Shown one piece after another: positions 23,707 through 39,389 of a stretch of DNA of 54,148 nt. The translations under genes were made by a program, and so were the position numbers. The DNA is from a virus (lineage: Duplodnaviria; Caudoviricetes). Position 1 is the stretch's first letter; every line of letters starts with the position of its first letter. The notes under the pieces are model-generated. The model searched no databases, had not been told where the DNA came from, and was given only the letters and a program-made list of their open reading frames with translations. The stretch lies in the IMG/VR virus record IMGVR_UViG_3300026907_000021, positions 1-54,148 of that record, one strand, 5' to 3'.

Positions 23707-24356
23707 CAAGCGTATGGGGATTTGACCCGAGCAAGTGCACGGGTTGGGCCATCTTCTCGCCAGAGAAAAGGCGCCGTGACGACAATTGCTCGCACGTCAT
23801 CTGTGGTGTTCTGGAGATGCCTCCGAAGTCCGATCATTATTTCACCGGCGACCAGATATCGCAGCAGGTTCAAAACCTATTTGTGAGCCACGGGAAGCCC
23901 GACTTCGTAGTTCTTGAAGAGCAGGCCATGGCCCAGATCGGCAATTCCAGCGCCGACGGTATGTTGTACCCGTGGATAGCCAGCATCGCTATTGTTTCGG
24001 TCGTTGCGAATTGGGGTGTTCCTTACGCTACGCTCCCTTCCTCTACTTGGCGGAAGTTCAGTTTTGGTGAAGGGTATAAGCCCCCTCAGAAACCTGTGAT
24101 GGTCAAGGGTGTTCAGGCTCTGGACAAGCGCGGCAAGCCGAAATTCAAAAACGACTGGAAATCTCCCGCGATTGAAAAATGTGAGCTGCTGGGTATTCAA
24201 CTGCCGAGACTAAAAGTTCACGCCGATGACGCTGCCGAAGCCGCTCTTTTGTCTATGTGCTGGGAACATCCTGAGATCAAGTTCCATGCTGGGCGTTACC
24301 GTCAGCCTTGGATCGATCTGCGCCAGCGCCGCAATGATCGAGGGGTGGCGGCATGA
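23703..24356 (+). CDS. RuvC-like Holliday junction resolvase
   Basis: GFDPSKCTGWA, VVLEE, DDAAEA acidic motifs. Confidence 0.72.
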   Translation: MTSVWGFDPSKCTGWAIFSPEKRRRDDNCSHVICGVLEMPPKSDHYFTGDQISQQVQNLFVSHGKPDFVVLEEQAMAQIGNSSADGMLYPWIASIAIVSVVANWGVPYATLPSSTWRKFSFGEGYKPPQKPVMVKGVQALDKRGKPKFKNDWKSPAIEKCELLGIQLPRLKVHADDAAEAALLSMCWEHPEIKFHAGRYRQPWIDLRQRRNDRGVAA

Positions 24357-25666
24357 TCCAGTTTCTCGACGGGCGCGTAACGCTCTATCCCGGCAATTGC
24401 CTCGAAGTTCTTGCCTCTCTTCCAGAGAACAGCATCCACAGTGCGGTGATGGATCCACCATACCACCTCACAAGCATTGTGGAGCGCTTTGGCAAGGAGG
24501 GATCGGCAGAGGTAAAGGCAGGAGCTACAGGCGCTTTCAAGCGGGCGTCTGCGGGGTTCATGGGCAAAGAATGGGACGGTGGCGACATTGCCTTTCAGGT
24601 TGCCACATGGGAGGCCGTCAAGCGCGTTCTCAAGCCGGGTGGCTATCTCCTCTCGTTTGCGTCAACTCGTGGCTATGGACGCATGTCTACTGCCATAGAA
24701 GACGCTGGCTTCGTTGCCCACCCTCTAACCGCATATCTACTGGCGCATGATGGGGCGCAAGACTTTCTCTCCATGCTATCGACGCGTCAGCTAGACGCCC
24801 TTCTTCGCCTGATGGATCATAACGATCTGGGCGGAATGCTCGGATGGGTATTCGGATCAGGCTTCCCGAAAGCAACCCGCCTCAAGGCAGAAGGATATGA
24901 CGGCTGGCGCTACGGCGGGCAAGCCCTAAAACCAGCCATTGAACCGATCTACATGGGGCAGAAGCCGTTCAGCGAGAAAACCGGCACGGCTAACGTGCTG
25001 CGGCACGGGACTGGGGCCGTCAATATCGACGGTTGTCGGGTTTCGACTTACGAAAGCACGGTCCGCTCTCGCACGACAGGCGATTTCGGACTGGTGAACG
25101 ATGATGGGTGGCGACCAACTCCAGGTATCAACGGCAGTGATATGGGACGTTGGCCAGCCAACCTTATTCATGACGGCAGCAACGAGGTCATCGCGGCATT
25201 TCCCGAGAGTGATGGCCAGCAAGGCGATGTATCGGGCAATGAACCGAGCAGTCTCACCAATCAGGTTTACGGCGACTTCAAGGGACGGCCGACGACACAG
25301 AAGCGTGGGGACACAGGCTCTGCAGCTCGCTTCTTCTATTCTGCCAAGGCCGACGCCGATGATCGAATTGGGTCAAAGCACCCAACGGTGAAGCCGGTCG
25401 ATCTGATGCGCTACCTCGTGCGGCTGGTGACCCCGCCCGGCGGCACGGTTCTCGATTGCTTCGCCGGCACTGGCACGACGGGTGAGGCGGCGTGGCGCGA
25501 AGGCTTCAATGCCATTCTCATCGAGCGTGAGCCTGAATACCAGCAAGACATCGCTGAGCGCATGCGCCTGTGCCTTTCCGGCCCAGATGAGAAGCGCCGG
25601 GAGATTATCAAACGTCGTGGCTTGGCAGATGACGATGCTGGCCCGCTATTCGGAGGTGCGGCATGA
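24353..25666 (+). CDS. DNA N6-adenine/N4-cytosine methyltransferase (beta class)
   Basis: DPPY, HPTVKP, VLDCFAGTGTT. Confidence 0.92.
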   Translation: MIQFLDGRVTLYPGNCLEVLASLPENSIHSAVMDPPYHLTSIVERFGKEGSAEVKAGATGAFKRASAGFMGKEWDGGDIAFQVATWEAVKRVLKPGGYLLSFASTRGYGRMSTAIEDAGFVAHPLTAYLLAHDGAQDFLSMLSTRQLDALLRLMDHNDLGGMLGWVFGSGFPKATRLKAEGYDGWRYGGQALKPAIEPIYMGQKPFSEKTGTANVLRHGTGAVNIDGCRVSTYESTVRSRTTGDFGLVNDDGWRPTPGINGSDMGRWPANLIHDGSNEVIAAFPESDGQQGDVSGNEPSSLTNQVYGDFKGRPTTQKRGDTGSAARFFYSAKADADDRIGSKHPTVKPVDLMRYLVRLVTPPGGTVLDCFAGTGTTGEAAWREGFNAILIEREPEYQQDIAERMRLCLSGPDEKRREIIKRRGLADDDAGPLFGGAA

Positions 25667-27135
25667 GCGGCCCCGTCGATCGCAAACAGTTTGACCGCAT
25701 CACCGAGCAAGACGCATTCGATGCTGAGCAGGTTTTCCTTGCCTGCGTGTTCGCCAACAATGCCTTGATCGCTGAGAGCGGTATCGAGCCGGAAGACTTC
25801 TCCCAGCAGTATCACCAGACGCTTTTTAAGCATGCACAGGAGATGGCGCGCTCTGGGCAGCCGGTTACGCCTGTCTCAATCAAGCCGCACATACCGAAGG
25901 TGATCCGCACCGACGAGAAAGACGATCACGGCCGACCCGTGGACATCATCACGGCAGAATACAACGTCGGCCTGATGAGCCTTGGCTTTGATGTCTCCAC
26001 CATGGGGCGGCTTGAATCATCCATCCACATCATCAAGGGCGCATCGCTTTCCCGACTGCTGGCTCATGAAGCTGACATCGCCGCCGAGATTGCCAAGGAA
26101 GGCCACACGCTTCTCACGCTGGACGAGGAGATCGAGCAGCTTGAAAAGCGCCTCAAGGAGCGCCGTCAGCGTCTTTCTGCACTGAAGGCCAGCGCCGCCC
26201 CCGGATCGTCGTATCTGGCCAAATTTGAGGCCTCTGCGCGCCGTGATGGCGTGGTGGGTGTCCCGATCGCGCTGAGAGAGATCCAGAACGTTCTATCCGA
26301 ACCGGCTTTCGAGGCAGGGAACCTATACGGCCTCCTGTCTTCGTCTGGCGAGGGCAAGTCGTCTCTGACGATGCAGCTTATCTATCACGCTGTCGACTGC
26401 GGTCACCCGGTCCTTTTCCTTTCATACGACCAGTCTGCAGACCAGTGCATCGGCCAGATGATCGCTCAGGCTCATGGCATATCGATGAAGAAGCAGCGGG
26501 AGCCAACCCGCCTGATGAGCGAAGAGGAGCGCGACACTTGCGTCATGTTCGCCACGGATATCAACCGCCGGCCGCTGGAGATAATCCGCTGTCAGCGTGA
26601 GGGCGTTGAGAAGCTCGTCGCCTATGCCCGCCGGTTCGTGAAGCGCTATGCCAACGGCAAGACGCCATTCATCGTCATCGACCACATCGGCAAGGTTAAG
26701 CCTCGCGACCCAAAGCTTTCACCTGACCGCATCTCTGGAGAGGTGACAGTTGAGTTGAAGGCGCTGGCCTACGAGACACAGTCGGCGGTCCTGATCCTGA
26801 ACCAGCGCAACGGCCTCGGCTCCAAGCGTGACAATCCCAGACCGATCGCAGCGGACCTTTACGGCGGGGAGGGCGCACGCGCTGACTACGACGCCGTGAT
26901 GACCCTGTACCGCCCAGAGAAATACAAGAAGGAGCGCGAGAAGGTCGCGGCCACATCGAGCGACTGGAAAACGATCAACACCGTGTTTGGCGCCGACGTC
27001 GAAGGCGTGGCCGAACTGGCGTCCATCAAGGTTCGCTTCGGTGATCCCACCATACAGGAAATCGTGCACTTCGAGGCAGAGTTCACCCGATACATCTCGC
27101 CCAAGCCGAAGCGCAATCAAGGGGAGCTGCTTTGA
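25663..27135 (+). CDS. dnaB: DnaB-like replicative helicase
   Basis: AEQ..LA N-domain, SGEGKSS, FLSYDQ, VIDHIG, LNQRN, DAVM.LYRP. Confidence 0.88.
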   Translation: MSGPVDRKQFDRITEQDAFDAEQVFLACVFANNALIAESGIEPEDFSQQYHQTLFKHAQEMARSGQPVTPVSIKPHIPKVIRTDEKDDHGRPVDIITAEYNVGLMSLGFDVSTMGRLESSIHIIKGASLSRLLAHEADIAAEIAKEGHTLLTLDEEIEQLEKRLKERRQRLSALKASAAPGSSYLAKFEASARRDGVVGVPIALREIQNVLSEPAFEAGNLYGLLSSSGEGKSSLTMQLIYHAVDCGHPVLFLSYDQSADQCIGQMIAQAHGISMKKQREPTRLMSEEERDTCVMFATDINRRPLEIIRCQREGVEKLVAYARRFVKRYANGKTPFIVIDHIGKVKPRDPKLSPDRISGEVTVELKALAYETQSAVLILNQRNGLGSKRDNPRPIAADLYGGEGARADYDAVMTLYRPEKYKKEREKVAATSSDWKTINTVFGADVEGVAELASIKVRFGDPTIQEIVHFEAEFTRYISPKPKRNQGELL

Positions 27136-27217
27136 TGACCCACCCCATCCAATGGAACGGCTCAAGCACCAGCTTCGGGCCGGAGTTTGAGAAGGCAGTT
27201 AATAGCAGGAGGCTGGT

Positions 27218-28270
27218 GTGATGGAAGTCCTCGACCTTTTCAGCGCTGCGGCCGGTGGCTGGTCGCTCGGAATGCACAGGGCAGGGTTCAAGACCATTGC
27301 CGCTTGCGAGAACGTCGATTGGCGGCGAGCTCTGTACCAGCAGAACAACCCCGAGGTTTTGATTTATGACGATGTCCGCACTCTCACAGCAGATCGAATT
27401 ATTCGAGATACCGGACGATTCCCGCCAATCGTCGTCGGAAGCCCGCCGTGCCAGGACATCTCAAGCGCCAACACAAAAGGCAAAGGCGTCGAAGGCGAGC
27501 GCAGTGGTCTCTACTTCGAAGCAATCCGCATCATCGGAGAAGGCCGCCCTCGTTGGTTCGCTCTTGAAAACAGCTCTAATCTCCGAACTCGGGGAGCTGA
27601 CGCCGTCCTCGCTGCACTGGAGGCACTCGGCTACACCTGCTTGCCGTTCGTGGTACGTGCTGGGGACATCGGAGCCAATCATGAGCGGCCCCGAAGCTGG
27701 ATCATCGGCTGTGATGCCGAGCAAGTTACCAACACCGATGGCTTCGGACGGAATGAAGGATGGGGCCGGGGGCGGGGCTGGGTCGACGTATCCGTTTCGA
27801 ATGATCTTATCCACCCCGCGAGCGTCGGACATGAAAGCGGGCGGACACGGTGCACCTGGGCGGACCGGGACAGTACGGCACATGTTGCACGAATCGTACC
27901 TACCAACACCGCGGGCGTCGGAGGCTTACCACGGGCCGGATATGACGTCGCACAGTCCGAACATCAAGGCGCGTCTTCAGAACAACGATCCGAGGTGGCA
28001 GGGAGCTATGGCTTTAGCCGAAATTCTTCAGAGCCATGGGCTTCGTGGAACCGCGGCATTACCGATCACATACGGATGGATGATGGGCTTTCCTCCTGGC
28101 TGGCTGGCACGCGCATTGCAGTCGGCGGTCCGCGCGGGACATCTGCAGCAAGTCTCATCGTTGAAGCGTTCGGAGACGCCGTCGTCCCGCAGATCCCGGA
28201 AGCAATAGGCAAAGCCATCTTGCGCACTGAAAGAGCCTTGGCGGCAATTTATGAAAGGGCGTCGGTATGA
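27218..28270 (+). CDS. DNA cytosine-C5 methyltransferase, alpha chain (motifs I-VIII and X)
   Basis: LDLFS..AGG, GSPPCQ, ENS, HERPRSWI, GDAVVPQ; motif IX missing. Confidence 0.9.
   Translation: MMEVLDLFSAAAGGWSLGMHRAGFKTIAACENVDWRRALYQQNNPEVLIYDDVRTLTADRIIRDTGRFPPIVVGSPPCQDISSANTKGKGVEGERSGLYFEAIRIIGEGRPRWFALENSSNLRTRGADAVLAALEALGYTCLPFVVRAGDIGANHERPRSWIIGCDAEQVTNTDGFGRNEGWGRGRGWVDVSVSNDLIHPASVGHESGRTRCTWADRDSTAHVARIVPTNTAGVGGLPRAGYDVAQSEHQGASSEQRSEVAGSYGFSRNSSEPWASWNRGITDHIRMDDGLSSWLAGTRIAVGGPRGTSAASLIVEAFGDAVVPQIPEAIGKAILRTERALAAIYERASV
27366..28208 (+). CDS. Nested alternative-frame C5-MTase beta chain (TRD-like repeats + motif IX)
   Basis: 280-aa ORF in +1 frame with GAGG RBS; three (P/S)TPxAS(D/E) repeats and WMMGFPPGW. 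Confidence 0.75.
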   Translation: MTMSALSQQIELFEIPDDSRQSSSEARRARTSQAPTQKAKASKASAVVSTSKQSASSEKAALVGSLLKTALISELGELTPSSLHWRHSATPACRSWYVLGTSEPIMSGPEAGSSAVMPSKLPTPMASDGMKDGAGGGAGSTYPFRMILSTPRASDMKAGGHGAPGRTGTVRHMLHESYLPTPRASEAYHGPDMTSHSPNIKARLQNNDPRWQGAMALAEILQSHGLRGTAALPITYGWMMGFPPGWLARALQSAVRAGHLQQVSSLKRSETPSSRRSRKQ

Positions 28271-28608: not shown

Positions 28609-28874
28609 GCGACAGACCAGTCGAAGCATGGCTTTCGTCCAAGGACCACGAGAAGTGGGGCAAAGCTGTGATGGCTTGCCAGAGCGGAGCGCCTTGGGAG
28701 TGCGGCGCTATGGGCGCGTGCTCTCATGGAGGCGACTGCTTCACCACCGATAGGCAGGGAGCCTGCGCCGCGTGGCGGATGATCCAGAACCTCAAGACCG
28801 ACAATGCCGTAGTAAAGCGACACCTCGATAGAGCAGTGCAGTTCCTGCGTTATGGAAAGGGAGACGCAGCATGA
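28605..28874 (+). CDS. Cys-rich hypothetical protein
   Basis: ATGA coupling. Confidence 0.65.
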   Translation: MSDRPVEAWLSSKDHEKWGKAVMACQSGAPWECGAMGACSHGGDCFTTDRQGACAAWRMIQNLKTDNAVVKRHLDRAVQFLRYGKGDAA

Positions 28875-29386
28875 ACCACCACGTCACCCTAACCCCATCG
28901 CAAAGAGCATGGCACGAAGCTGCAAAGGCCAGAGAGGCGGAGAGAGTGCGGAAGGCGCGCCTGCTTCAGGAGCGGCACGAGAACGATGGCGGCAATGTTG
29001 TCTACATCGATGCCAATCCCAGGCCGAAGCCCGTCAAGCGGCCGCTTTACAAGCATCTATCCCATAAAGCCGAACCAGAATGGGTGGCGCGGGAGATACT
29101 GTTCGACGCCCATGTAAAGCAATGGCGATATCTATCCGGGCAGGAAAACATAACCTGCCGAGCCTACATCAAAATGCGGGCCGCTGAACTCGGATTTACC
29201 TTCGAAGAGATCACCGGCCCCAAACGGGCGCGAAAATATGTAGAGCCGCGTCACCTCATCATGTGGGAGGTCAAGACAAAGTTGCGACCGGAAATTAGTT
29301 ACCCAGAGCTAGGCAGGTTGTTCGGCGGTAGAGACCATACATCCGCGCTTTGGGCAGTGCGTCGTATACAGGAAAAAATTAGCTAA
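28871..29386 (+). CDS. Protein with DnaA C-terminal (domain IV) DNA-binding HTH
   Basis: R....V.PRHLIMW...SYPELGRLFGGRDHTSAL.AVRRI. Confidence 0.85.
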   Translation: MNHHVTLTPSQRAWHEAAKAREAERVRKARLLQERHENDGGNVVYIDANPRPKPVKRPLYKHLSHKAEPEWVAREILFDAHVKQWRYLSGQENITCRAYIKMRAAELGFTFEEITGPKRARKYVEPRHLIMWEVKTKLRPEISYPELGRLFGGRDHTSALWAVRRIQEKIS

Positions 29387-29499: not shown

Positions 29500-30102
29500 A
29501 TGGCTGTGCCGACACAAGCACGTGCAATGGAGTATTTCAACTACGATCCAGAAACGGGTCATCTCTTGGTTAAAGAAAGACCAGAGTCAGAGTTTTCGAA
29601 AGCCCGTTATTCGCATCACCTCAGACGGGTGGGTAAACCATCAGGAGGCGTCAGCACCACACACGGTTACAGGAAGGTTCTTATAGACGGCGCCTATCAC
29701 CCGGCACACCGCGTCATCTGGCTTATCGTCACCGGCGAGTGGGTAAAATACCCTGATTTTGAGATCGACCACATCAACGGAAACCCAGACGACAATCGAT
29801 GGGCCAACCTTCGCAAGGTGACGAAAAGCGAAAACCAACGAAACGCCTGCAAGCGTGTCAACAACACCTCTGGCATTCATGGCGTGAACTGGAAGCCGGT
29901 TTACAACAAAAAACAAAACGATGGGCGATGGGTTGCCCGCATTTGGAACGGCCCGCGGCACGTCTATCTAGGATCATTCCGTACCCTTCATGAAGCTTCC
30001 ATAGCTCGAAAGGCTGCTGAGCGTGTTCTTGGATTCACGCGTACCGATGAAGAGCCCAGCAAATTTGCTCTGGCCAGACGCGAAGGGAGGGCCTCGCCAT
30101 GA
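29500..30102 (+). CDS. HNH endonuclease with AP2 domain
   Basis: YDPETG, AHRVIW, IDHINGNPDDNRWANLR, NTSGIHGV...WVARI...YLGSF. Confidence 0.92.
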   Translation: MAVPTQARAMEYFNYDPETGHLLVKERPESEFSKARYSHHLRRVGKPSGGVSTTHGYRKVLIDGAYHPAHRVIWLIVTGEWVKYPDFEIDHINGNPDDNRWANLRKVTKSENQRNACKRVNNTSGIHGVNWKPVYNKKQNDGRWVARIWNGPRHVYLGSFRTLHEASIARKAAERVLGFTRTDEEPSKFALARREGRASP

Positions 30103-35131: not shown

Positions 35132-36502
35132 ATGAACGCGATATCACGCATTACCAATGCGGCTTCGCGCCGGCTGGATCACATGTTTCAAGGGTTCTTC
35201 ACGAACACAAAACATAATTACGGGAAAGACTTCGGCTATCCCGATGTCCTCACGTTCGATCTGCTCTACCGGATGTATCGCCGCAACGGCATTGCGACGG
35301 CCGCAGTAGACAAAACCGCGCTCAAGACATGGCAGGACACGCCATTCTTGCTTGAACAAGAGCGTGACGGGTCACAGAAGGGCAAGAGCAAGGAAACGGA
35401 ACTAGAGAAGGAAATTCGCCTCAAGTTCGCGTCGATGCGCTTATGGGCCAAGCTGGCCGAAGCTGACCGCAAGGCAATGGTGGGCGGATACTCTGGCGTC
35501 ATCCTGCGATTGAGGGATGGCAAACGGTTCGACCAACCAGTTGATCGCGTGGGCGGCGGTCTCAAAGGTCTCTATCGCATTGATCCCGTATGGGCTGGGC
35601 AGTTGAAGGTTTCCGATTGGAACACTGACACGACCTCGGAAACATACGGTGAGCCGACGATGTACGAGTTCAACGAGGCGAATGTAGCCGACGAGAACCC
35701 GAACAAGCGCAGCCTTCGCATCCATCCTGACAGGGTGTTGATCTGGTCAGACGATGGGACGGTAAACGGACGCTCTCTGCTGGAGCCGGGCTATAACGAT
35801 CTGATCGACCTCGAAAAGATCAAGGGCGCCGGCGGTGAGGGCTTCTGGAAGAACGCCAAGAGCGCTCCGGTGCTGGAAATGCCGGCCGATGTGCGCATCG
35901 CGGAAATGGCGAAGGCCATGGGCGTTACGGTTCAGGACATTGCCGACAAGATGAACGAGCAGGTGGCTGACTTCCAGAAGGGCTTCGACCAGATGCTGAT
36001 GCTGCAGGGCATGCAGGCAAAGACGCTCGGCGTCACCCTGCCGAGCCCGGAACACTTCTTTGCGGCGCCACTCCAATCGTTTGCAGCCTCTGTAACCATG
36101 CCGGTGAAAATACTGGTGGGAATGCAGACAGGGGAGCGCGCCTCGACTGAGGACGCAGACGAATGGAACCAGACCAACATGGCGCGCCGGGTGAACATCA
36201 CTCATCCGAACGTCATGGAGTTTGTCACCAGACTGGTGACATGGGGAATACTGCCGGAGAAGGACTGGTTTCTCGATCAGGCCGACCTCACCGAAAGCTC
36301 GATGTCCGAGAAGGTCGACCGCGCCAACAAGATGGCTGACACCAACCAGAAGATGGGCAACTCGACATACGTCTTCACGGATGACGAAATCCGCGCCGCA
36401 GTCGGTTACGAGCCGCTGACCGACGCCGAGAAATATCGCGACGAGACCGACGACGAGACGCAAGCCGCTCTCGGAAAACCGGCACCAACACAAGAGGAAT
36501 AG
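35132..36502 (+). CDS. Portal protein (DUF1073-like)
   Basis: Size and position after terL; MYRRNGIA, YGEP..Y, IHPDRV, LVGMQTGERAS. Confidence 0.88.
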   Translation: MNAISRITNAASRRLDHMFQGFFTNTKHNYGKDFGYPDVLTFDLLYRMYRRNGIATAAVDKTALKTWQDTPFLLEQERDGSQKGKSKETELEKEIRLKFASMRLWAKLAEADRKAMVGGYSGVILRLRDGKRFDQPVDRVGGGLKGLYRIDPVWAGQLKVSDWNTDTTSETYGEPTMYEFNEANVADENPNKRSLRIHPDRVLIWSDDGTVNGRSLLEPGYNDLIDLEKIKGAGGEGFWKNAKSAPVLEMPADVRIAEMAKAMGVTVQDIADKMNEQVADFQKGFDQMLMLQGMQAKTLGVTLPSPEHFFAAPLQSFAASVTMPVKILVGMQTGERASTEDADEWNQTNMARRVNITHPNVMEFVTRLVTWGILPEKDWFLDQADLTESSMSEKVDRANKMADTNQKMGNSTYVFTDDEIRAAVGYEPLTDAEKYRDETDDETQAALGKPAPTQEE

Positions 36503-38351: not shown

Positions 38352-39389
38352 ATGCGCTACTTTGACGAACAGCTCGTCGCCAACTCCCGACCGCATGCGG
38401 AATGGTGGGCTGACGTTTCCATGAACCGCGAGCACTTCCATCAGGTGGAAGATCATATGGCATCGCTCTCGAATGCCGCCGCTATCCTCCCGCGCGATGC
38501 GTGGATCGATATCGACAGCATCACCCGCCGCGTTCTGCGCGACGACGAGGGCGAGGTCTATATGCGCGACCTCATGGCTCTGGCCCGCCCGATCAATATC
38601 GGCAAACTGGTCAGCCTGACGCGCGTTGCTTCGGACTCGGCTAACCCGGTCATCCGCTCGATGTCTGGCCAGACGCCTGTTCCGATCGACAAGGTGACTT
38701 ATGCCTTCCGCGGCACGCCGATCCCGATCTTTCAGGACGGTTATGGTCGCGAATGGCGCGAATGGAATACCATGCAGTCGGAAAACTTCGACGCCCTCGC
38801 AGATGACGAAGAAGCCGCGAACGCCAAGATCAAGAAGGATCAGGCCGATTACGTCCTGAACGGCGATCCCTCAATCGTCTTCCAGGGCTACAACGGTACA
38901 GGCATCCGCAGCAACCCGCTTGCGAAGGCGGTTAACATTGGCCCCTCGGGTGCGAACATCAATCTGGTGACCGCTACTGCAGACCAGATCGACGCGTTCT
39001 TCACTCAAACGCTTGGTGCCATCCTTGATGCCAACCTCGTCACCGGCAAGATCAATGTCTACGTGTCGCCCGAAATCGGCCGCCGCCTTGACATGTCCTA
39101 TTCCGGTTCGTCTGGGTTCAAGGGCGGAACGCTGCTCGCCTACTTGCTGACCAACCGGCGTATCAACAAGATCGAAGTTACCTATCGCCTTTCCGGCAAT
39201 GAGTTCTTCGGCTTCGTTCCCAGCGCCGAGTTTATCCGCCCGCTGATCGGCATGGCCGTCAACACGACTGCGATGCCCCGTCTTTACCCGACCGCCAACT
39301 ATCAATTCCTGAAAATGGGCGCGATGGGTCTGGAAATTCGGGCGGACTTCAACGGTAAAGCTGGCGTCTTCTACAGCACTAACACCTGA
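38352..39389 (+). CDS. Major capsid protein
   Basis: 345 aa, position in head module, downstream hairpin at 39396-39415. Confidence 0.85.
   Translation: MRYFDEQLVANSRPHAEWWADVSMNREHFHQVEDHMASLSNAAAILPRDAWIDIDSITRRVLRDDEGEVYMRDLMALARPINIGKLVSLTRVASDSANPVIRSMSGQTPVPIDKVTYAFRGTPIPIFQDGYGREWREWNTMQSENFDALADDEEAANAKIKKDQADYVLNGDPSIVFQGYNGTGIRSNPLAKAVNIGPSGANINLVTATADQIDAFFTQTLGAILDANLVTGKINVYVSPEIGRRLDMSYSGSSGFKGGTLLAYLLTNRRINKIEVTYRLSGNEFFGFVPSAEFIRPLIGMAVNTTAMPRLYPTANYQFLKMGAMGLEIRADFNGKAGVFYSTNT

Follow-up and report, generated by a model that had tools for sequence, protein, structure and literature searches.

Conserved nested layout and frame-specific selection in a phage cytosine-5 methyltransferase gene that probably encodes two polypeptides

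The window analyzed was the whole 54,148 bp virus record IMGVR_UViG_3300026907_000021 (Duplodnaviria; Caudoviricetes), which is complete according to CheckV (completeness 100%). It contains a DNA (cytosine-5) methyltransferase (C5) gene in which a long open reading frame (ORF), designated alpha and read in frame A, encloses a second ORF, designated beta. The two starts are 148 nucleotides (nt) apart (27366 - 27218), which places the nested ORF in the +1 frame (frame B). In our estimate it is about 80% probable that the gene specifies an orphan phage methyltransferase composed of two polypeptides read from this one stretch of DNA. The nested layout, a different pattern of selection in each frame and a maintained beta start codon were all observed among relatives of the gene. 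Coordinates are collected in Table 1.

Results

Motif content of the alpha and beta frames

The original prediction, made from the letters of the DNA and a list of its ORFs, had described a 350 amino acid (aa) ORF with a nested +1-frame ORF of 280 aa, a GAGG 9 nt upstream of the nested ATG, the peptides LPTPMASD, LSTPRASD, LPTPRASE and WMMGFPPGW in the nested frame, and the lack of motif IX and of a recognizable target-recognition domain (TRD) in the longer chain. Every one of these features was recovered from the sequence.

Frame A matched the PF00145 profile with an E-value of 7.3e-33 over aa 2-172 only, corresponding to profile positions 1-168 of 324. A PDB sequence search matched residues 3-168 of alpha to M.HaeIII (1dct_A) with an E-value of 2.7e-14. 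The PF00145 features motif I, motif IV (P-C), motif VI and motif VIII were present in order, as was motif X, and residues P76, P77, C78 and Q79 of motif IV were invariant across 22 alpha sequences. A TRD and motif IX between motifs VIII and X of the same chain, the remaining features of the family, were not found in alpha; the motif IX-like segment is in the +1 frame. The C-terminal part of alpha (residues 315-342) aligned with the GNAVVPQ region of an Acidobacteriota relative (L045) with an E-value of 0.002. In an AlphaFold2 (AF2) prediction of alpha alone, aa 1-174 and 321-350 were confident, with a helix at 325-349. Residues 175-320 had a predicted local distance difference test score (pLDDT) below 50, and 175-277 were without secondary structure. 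Amino acid diversity in frame A was 0.54 over this linker. The length of alpha ranged from 350 to 728 aa among loci and the lengths of the variable region differed. From the position of the AGGAGG Shine-Dalgarno (SD) sequence, 5 nt before GTG 27218 and 8 nt before ATG 27221, the ATG appears the likelier start of alpha.

Beta contains a helix plus hairpin at residues ∼48-100 (LVGSLLKTALISEL, HWRHSATPACRSWYVL), three tandem L-x-T-P modules and the motif IX-like segment. A profile search of the nested ORF, proposed with the original prediction, returned no Pfam or NCBIfam family, and sequence searches identified 287 homologues with E ≤ 1e-3 (best 1.7e-107). Of the best 120 of these, 119 were without a Pfam domain and were named "hypothetical protein" where the source names them; matches in the ESM Atlas were likewise to viral "hypothetical protein" clusters only. 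The sole PF00145 label among the 120 homologues listed belonged to P0015 (371 aa), in which alpha residues 1-75 are joined to the beta frame just before PPCQ with loss of the PCQ motif, through either a 1-nt frameshift or misassembly. No longer fused forms (491-2000 aa) of the beta TRD-IX region were found in a search that provides weak evidence.

The modules of beta each begin with [L/M]-x-T-P and are 27-50 aa in length. There are three in the window and 2-7 in homologues, drawn from a pool of about a dozen types whose order is shuffled among homologues, and they are conserved as beta peptides. This shuffled pool fits the idea, put forward with the original prediction, that the repeats set the specificity of the enzyme. 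In one module type, 'LPTPTKRD...', the K-R-D is repeated in tandem five times in L006 and twice in L003 and is present as a single copy elsewhere; the 9-nt repeat alters the length of the module and leaves both frames undisturbed.

Selection in each frame

Twenty-nine complete genes were aligned by alpha codons and nucleotide diversity was calculated for each frame-A codon position. Codons 2-48, before the beta start, gave values of 0.18/0.14/0.49 for positions 1/2/3, the usual pattern of a frame-A gene. The values were 0.19/0.07/0.32 for codons 91-130 and 0.19/0.16/0.31 for codons 131-165; over codons 91-165 many alpha third positions were invariant and first positions varied. In the aligned variable region the values were 0.43/0.26/0.24, with the diversity peak at the frame-B third position, so that wobble here follows frame B. 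In the region of motif X the frame-A pattern reappeared (0.18/0.12/0.46).

The ratio of nonsynonymous to synonymous differences (pN/pS) was calculated by the Nei-Gojobori method over alpha codons utilizing 28 sequences, or 12 for the motif IX segment. Ratios for frame A versus frame B were 0.27 vs 1.81 for codons 2-48, 0.34 vs 1.56 for codons 53-90, 0.41 vs 0.75 for codons 111-149 and 0.27 vs 1.78 for codons 151-165. They reversed to 1.55 vs 0.33 in the motif IX region (codons 258-294) before switching back to 0.25 vs 1.63 at motif X (codons 311-345), with frame A taking over the constraint from frame B near 28145. In codons 111-149 the frame-A pS was 0.32, down from 0.56-0.60.

It follows that frame B encodes the variable region and motif IX, and frame A motifs I-VIII and X. 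Only ∼160 nt (alpha codons 97-149) are under protein-level constraint in both frames. About 840 bp of dual coding had been predicted; both frames are open throughout this length, and simultaneous constraint on the two proteins is confined to the shorter segment.

Open frames and the beta start codon

The constrained frame of each of the 29 loci was synonymously recoded 2000 times with the codon usage of the flanking ORFs. Over alpha codons 50-165, frame B contained 0 stops in 28/29 loci (the exception, L020, has one), against an expected mean of 1.3-5.9. Over the beta variable and motif IX regions (108-257 codons), frame A contained 0 stops in 29/29 loci, against an expected mean of 2.1-10.

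In 29/29 genes, alpha codons 38-61 contained a frame-B ATG downstream of the final frame-B stop; after recoding it was expected in 8-76% of cases (mean 36%). It was also present in 56/57 distinct viral loci, the exception being L112. The ATG is formed at different codon pairs according to lineage (His-Val, Tyr-Asp or Asp-Val), suggesting that selection, and not inheritance alone, has maintained it.

Conservation of the layout

As conservation in frame A could by itself produce similarity among beta sequences, loci were compared at the DNA level. The sources were 48 loci from species-representative genomes, 2 phage loci and the window (51 in total). The strict pattern was defined as motif IX in the +1 frame, motif X in the alpha frame, alpha open to motif X and frame B open back into motifs I-VIII. 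The layout was present in 40/51 sources, 35 by the strict pattern and 5 by other evidence (L002, L026, L032, L037 and L040). A further 5/51 were partial or cut by contig ends (L029, L030, L034, L047 and L048). Among viral contigs from IMG/VR the layout was present in 66/71 loci, with 1 cut by a contig end. The nested frame is thus conserved in homologues, as the two-chain prediction demanded.

The genome loci were from Rhizobium, Ensifer, Sphingomonas, Paracoccus, Brevundimonas, Caulobacter, Bradyrhizobium, Methylopila and Agrobacterium, with remoter loci in Acetobacteraceae, Janthinobacterium, a Tepidisphaeraceae metagenome-assembled genome and Acidobacteriota. The isolated Rhizobium phages RHph_N2, RHEph18 and RHph_X2_25 also carry the layout. 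Only alpha is annotated in these three GenBank phages, as expected from the suggestion that gene callers would miss the nested chain; elsewhere beta is annotated, as a "hypothetical protein". Recurrence across genomes, viral contigs and isolated phages means that the layout is neither an assembly artefact nor a private pseudogene.

Single Paracoccus genomes carried two or three copies with differing module sets, of which one tends to be damaged: P. versutus DSM 582 has L013, L020 and L023, P. denitrificans DSM 413 has L019 and L021, and Paracoccus sp. MKU1 has L024, L025 and L031. The damage consists of a TGA in the beta leader of L020 and a stop in alpha of L031. In a Sphingomonas locus (L015:2350-4041) alpha is 564 aa, frame B ends before a recognizable hand-off from motif IX to motif X, and ∼480 nt are extra before motif X; an insertion or another C-terminal arrangement is possible. 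One viral locus (L120:1344-2115) joins the motif I-IV part, the beta hairpin, the modules, motif IX and motif X in one frame. It is without motifs VI-VIII, PPCK replaces PPCQ, and it is apparently a deletion derivative with an in-frame fusion of all three parts.

A single-chain relative was found in Acidobacteriota (L046:2056-4392), in which one frame holds motifs I-VIII, a single S-T-P-T module, motif IX and motif X and continues into a long C-terminal extension (779 aa stop-to-stop). It aligned with alpha over motifs I-VIII (hhalign probability 99.4%), whereas its alignment with beta was restricted to MMG[F/Y]P; its alternative frame is beta-like over motif VII and then stops. Its close relative L045:2059-3961, also from Acidobacteriota, has one frameshift with motifs IX-X in the next frame, an AquI-like arrangement.

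Prediction of the alpha-beta complex

In the AF2 prediction of beta alone, residues 55-78 formed a helix and residues 83-101 a hairpin. Modeling of the two chains together, also proposed with the original prediction, reached a score of 0.88, whereas none of the 3 controls exceeded 0.00. This mark was reached by 116/157 solved complexes and 2/215 mismatched pairs, a calibration that is only roughly valid here as custom alignments were used. The complex runs shared at least 52% of contacts, with a partner pLDDT of at least 51. Beta 56-101 was predicted to contact alpha 123-171 and 329-337. The low-error contacts were between the beta helix (66-74) and the motif X helix of alpha (329-337), between beta 97 and alpha 144, and between the motif IX segment of beta (236-242) and alpha residues 17 and 318-324. 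The prediction supports binding of beta to alpha; the pair resembles split versions of solved monomeric C5 methyltransferases, and the pass may therefore partly reflect this likeness.

Proposed enzyme and alternative explanations

In the proposed enzyme, alpha would supply the catalytic large domain that binds S-adenosylmethionine, with motifs I-VIII at the N terminus and the motif X helix at the C terminus. These parts would be linked by ∼135 residues without conserved sequence that need only be stop-free. Translation of beta would initiate at the internal ATG, in the +1 frame behind the SD-like GAGG. The beta helix-hairpin (∼48-100), which overprints alpha motifs VI-VII, would dock on the motif X helix and the motif VII-VIII strands, and the three tandem L-x-T-P modules would form a target-recognition region that is followed by the motif IX-like segment. 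Alpha and beta would then associate non-covalently to give a complete, active enzyme, as has been found experimentally for M.EcoHK31I. Outside the ∼160 nt of double constraint, one of the two frames would be a passenger that merely stays open. This EcoHK31I-like reading, already suggested by the original prediction, is supported by conservation of the layout, frame-specific selection, openness of both frames, the start codon and the complex prediction.

Several observations weigh against it. The SD-like element in front of beta is weak and its 9-nt spacer long, and an SD-like tetramer was detected at -18 to -4 in only 46/57 distinct viral loci by a crude regular expression. A linker of ∼135 residues without sequence constraint is unusual. 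Beta had no match in Pfam (E ≤ 1), NCBIfam or a PDB profile search (E ≤ 10), and its AF2 prediction in isolation was poor (mean pLDDT 44). Assignment of motif IX by sequence alone depends on a short match, the alignment of the segment with MMGYP of L046 covering 15 columns with an E-value of 0.025 and a probability of 1.9% (hhalign). The per-locus probabilities of zero stops (0.001-0.20 for frame B and 0-0.10 for frame A) are not independent, as the loci are related, although their variable regions differ in both length and content. At fourfold sites of alpha-invariant codons, third-position diversity was 0.28 in codons 91-165 (n = 8) and 0.50 in A-only regions (n = 18), a difference that is consistent with double constraint but small (Mann-Whitney p = 0.04). 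Six of the 51 sources are deviant (L015, L027, L031, L036, L045 with one shift and L046 as a single chain), the viral loci L105, L107, L113 and L120 have other frame relations, and stops occur within the N-terminal part of beta in L020 and L112.

The same constraint, passing from frame A to frame B and back, would be obtained from a canonical single chain produced by two ribosomal frameshifts, +1 after motif VIII (∼27700-27725) and -1 before motif X (∼28145). Such shifts would restore the canonical order of motifs I-VIII, TRD, IX and X, which the single-chain relative L046 has in one frame, and in the Paracoccus loci the beta stop lies within 3 codons of the second hand-off, where a stop can stimulate shifting. 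Frame B upstream of motif VIII is, however, open, ATG-started and constrained (beta 48-100), none of which a double frameshift requires; nor does it need frame A to remain open through the variable region, as in 29/29 loci. A conserved slippery heptamer was not seen at either junction in the aligned DNA, and beta of L032 and of the Paracoccus loci just terminates 3 codons past its last conserved residue, Leu260. A gene with two obligatory shifts would have no known precedent, and the two chains of M.EcoHK31I are reported to work when expressed separately (PMC2836561). We regard a double frameshift as unlikely. There is a rather slim chance that the enzyme consists of three pieces, the motif X helix being released by processing of alpha or made by separate downstream initiation in frame A. 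The alpha linker, without conserved sequence (diversity 0.54) or predicted structure and widely variable in length, would suit this arrangement. Frame A is nevertheless stop-free across the whole linker in 29/29 loci, against expectation, which is hard to explain unless ribosomes read through it.

It is very improbable that only alpha is real, with a TRD of its own, and that frame B is an accidental open frame in G+C-rich DNA. The window is 57% G+C with many long spurious ORFs, and alternative-frame translations look conserved even where beta is absent, that of L046 being 49% identical to beta 49-104. Against this, in the variable and motif IX regions it is frame B, not frame A, that is under purifying selection (pN/pS 0.33 vs 1.55 in the motif IX region), the PF00145 match of alpha stops midway through the profile with alpha 175-320 predicted to be disordered, and both the openness of frame B and its ATG exceed the recoding expectation. 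Least probable of all is that the gene has decayed to a pseudogene, or that misassembly introduced two compensating indels. A few relatives do have additional shifts, fusions or stops (P0015, L031, L036, L045, L105, L107, L113 and L120), but the same double-frame layout recurs in 40/51 and 66/71 sources from many genera and in three complete genomes of isolated Rhizobium phages, with selection visible in both frames. Double frameshifting, an accidental frame B and a pseudogene or assembly error were rejected on the conservation, selection and openness data.

Genome setting

The C5 gene is situated in the phage replication module, as determined by a Pfam scan of 22 ORFs of the window. It directly follows a DnaB-like helicase gene, which is itself preceded by an N6/N4 methylase gene, two genes upstream of the C5 gene; the module thus contains two orphan DNA methyltransferases, one of N6/N4 type and one of C5 type. 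Small ORFs lie 3' of the C5 gene, ahead of a DnaA-C helix-turn-helix (HTH) protein and an HNH protein, and the terminase, portal and capsid genes follow. None of the 22 ORFs scanned matched a restriction-enzyme family, and the enzyme therefore looks like an orphan. Its role is likely to be self-protection of the phage DNA against host restriction.

Table 1. Positions of the C5 methyltransferase gene, its two reading frames and neighboring genes in the window
Feature	Position	Strand	Frame	Remarks
Methylase-domain gene	24353..25666	+		PF01555 N6_N4_Mtase, E 1.1e-22, matches aa 330-401 of 437 only
DnaB-like helicase	25663..27135			Directly before C5 gene
AGGAGG Shine-Dalgarno of alpha gene	27207..27212	+		5 nt before GTG 27218, 8 nt before ATG 27221
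Alpha ORF	27218..28270	+	A	350 aa from GTG, 349 aa from ATG 27221; motifs I-VIII, unconstrained linker, motif X
GAGG, SD-like	27353..27356	+		Within alpha coding sequence, 9 nt before beta ATG
Beta ORF	27366..28208	+	B (+1)	280 aa, ATG to TAG, wholly nested in alpha
Beta leader	27366..27505	+	B	∼Residues 1-47; open, protein sequence unconstrained
Motif IV PPCQ	27443..27454	+	A	Contains catalytic cysteine
Doubly constrained segment	27506..27664	+	A and B	Alpha motifs VI-VII (codons 97-149) and beta helix/hairpin
ENS	27566..27574		A	
HERPRSW	27680..27700		A	
Beta variable region	27726..27986	+	B	Three tandem L-x-T-P modules, starts 27726, 27807 and 27900; proposed target-recognition modules
LPTPMASD	27726..27749		B	
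LSTPRASD	27807..27830		B	
LPTPRASE	27900..27923		B	
WMMGFPPGW	28077..28103	+	B	Motif IX-like
Alpha C-terminal part AASLIVEAF-GDAVVPQIPEAIG	28145..28267	+	A	Motif X helix; pN/pS switch
GDAVVPQ	28172..28192		A	Motif X
DnaA-C HTH protein	28871..29386			After small ORFs 3' of C5 gene
HNH protein	29500..30102			Followed by terminase, portal and capsid genes
Portal gene	35132..36502			
DUF6260 ORF	38352..39389	+		Nearly full-length match, E 7.7e-118; position expected for major capsid gene, after portal

Discussion

Implications of the nested layout

The nested layout is conserved and widespread in phages and prophages of Alphaproteobacteria and beyond, M.EcoHK31I being the only earlier nested example, and the second chain is systematically absent from annotation. 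Three regimes adjoin within one gene (frame A only, both frames, frame B only), which makes the locus useful for testing selection methods and gene finders that allow for overlaps.

We tentatively propose that beta may be a detachable, fast-evolving specificity subunit, the modules of which act as target-recognition units in their own right and are shuffled by phages, so that the range of methylated sequences is widened or altered. If so, every module of the pool must also be stop-free in the frame of alpha, since alpha reads through to motif X, and the alpha linker would be a rare example of a protein segment selected only for translatability. A heterodimeric multispecific C5 methyltransferase would be a combination not described before. 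A modular specificity subunit of this kind could explain how these phages adapt the protection of their DNA to host restriction systems.

Comparison with known methyltransferases

The N-terminal ∼170 residues of alpha match PF00145 and M.HaeIII, and PCQ, ENx, the R-x-R of motif VIII and the GxAVxP of motif X are present as in monomeric enzymes such as M.HaeIII and M.HhaI. Monomeric C5 methyltransferases keep the small domain (TRD and motif IX) in the same chain, whereas the present gene does not. The multispecific C5 methyltransferases of Bacillus phages (M.SPRI, M.Phi3TI, M.H2I and relatives) are orphan enzymes with tandem target-recognizing domains, each conferring one specificity. The shuffled modules of beta (2-7) look like these tandem domains; unlike the proposed two-chain enzyme, the Bacillus phage enzymes are single polypeptides. 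In a literature search of a limited library, none of the titles listed concerned a phage C5 methyltransferase family of this kind, with alternative or overlapping frames.

The genes of M.AquI are consecutive rather than nested. A second chain that follows the first gene and carries both motifs IX and X, as in enzymes of the M.AquI type, was not found here, motif X being in the alpha frame. M.AquI and M.EcoHK31I are the two natural C5 methyltransferases previously known to consist of two chains (PMC3404938). M.AquI, which recognizes CYCGRG, consists of two polypeptides split within the variable region (PMC3404938), and its small subunit carries motifs IX and X, whereas the present gene keeps motif X on alpha and has beta nested in +1.

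M.EcoHK31I is an enzyme of E. coli HK31 that recognizes YGGCCR. Its beta chain is wholly inside alpha in another frame and the chains must associate; alpha carries motifs I-VIII, motif X and the predicted TRD, beta carries motif IX, and N-terminal truncation of beta weakens its association with alpha (PMC2836561 and PMC3404938). The present gene is the same in the nesting of beta and in the division of motifs, with I-VIII and X on alpha and IX on beta. It differs in being an orphan phage gene, M.EcoHK31I belonging to a restriction-modification system. The TRD of M.EcoHK31I has been placed in alpha (PMC2836561, PMC3404938), whereas here selection places the variable region in beta. The present beta also starts ∼50 residues further upstream of motif VII than that of M.EcoHK31I and carries the tandem L-x-T-P modules.

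No match to the gene was obtained by blastn among complete E. coli genomes. The comparison with the M.EcoHK31I sequence covered primer fragments, in which the same +1 overlap at motif VII was seen. The beta delta-37 primer in the supplement of PMC2836561 encodes W-S-N-S-G-M-A in the beta frame of M.EcoHK31I; the same primer read one base earlier gives V-E-F-G-Y-G, with a motif VII-like "GY" (read by eye over few residues). The beta chain of M.EcoHK31I would thus overlap alpha motif VII in +1, in the identical register to that found here, where G-Y-T-C of alpha coincides with A-T-P-A of beta. If the modules of the present beta do serve in target recognition, it may be necessary to reconsider whether the TRD of M.EcoHK31I lies in alpha, as the beta chain of that enzyme overlaps alpha in this same register. 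On its predicted chains the present gene has the EcoHK31I architecture, and it is probably related to M.EcoHK31I by descent.

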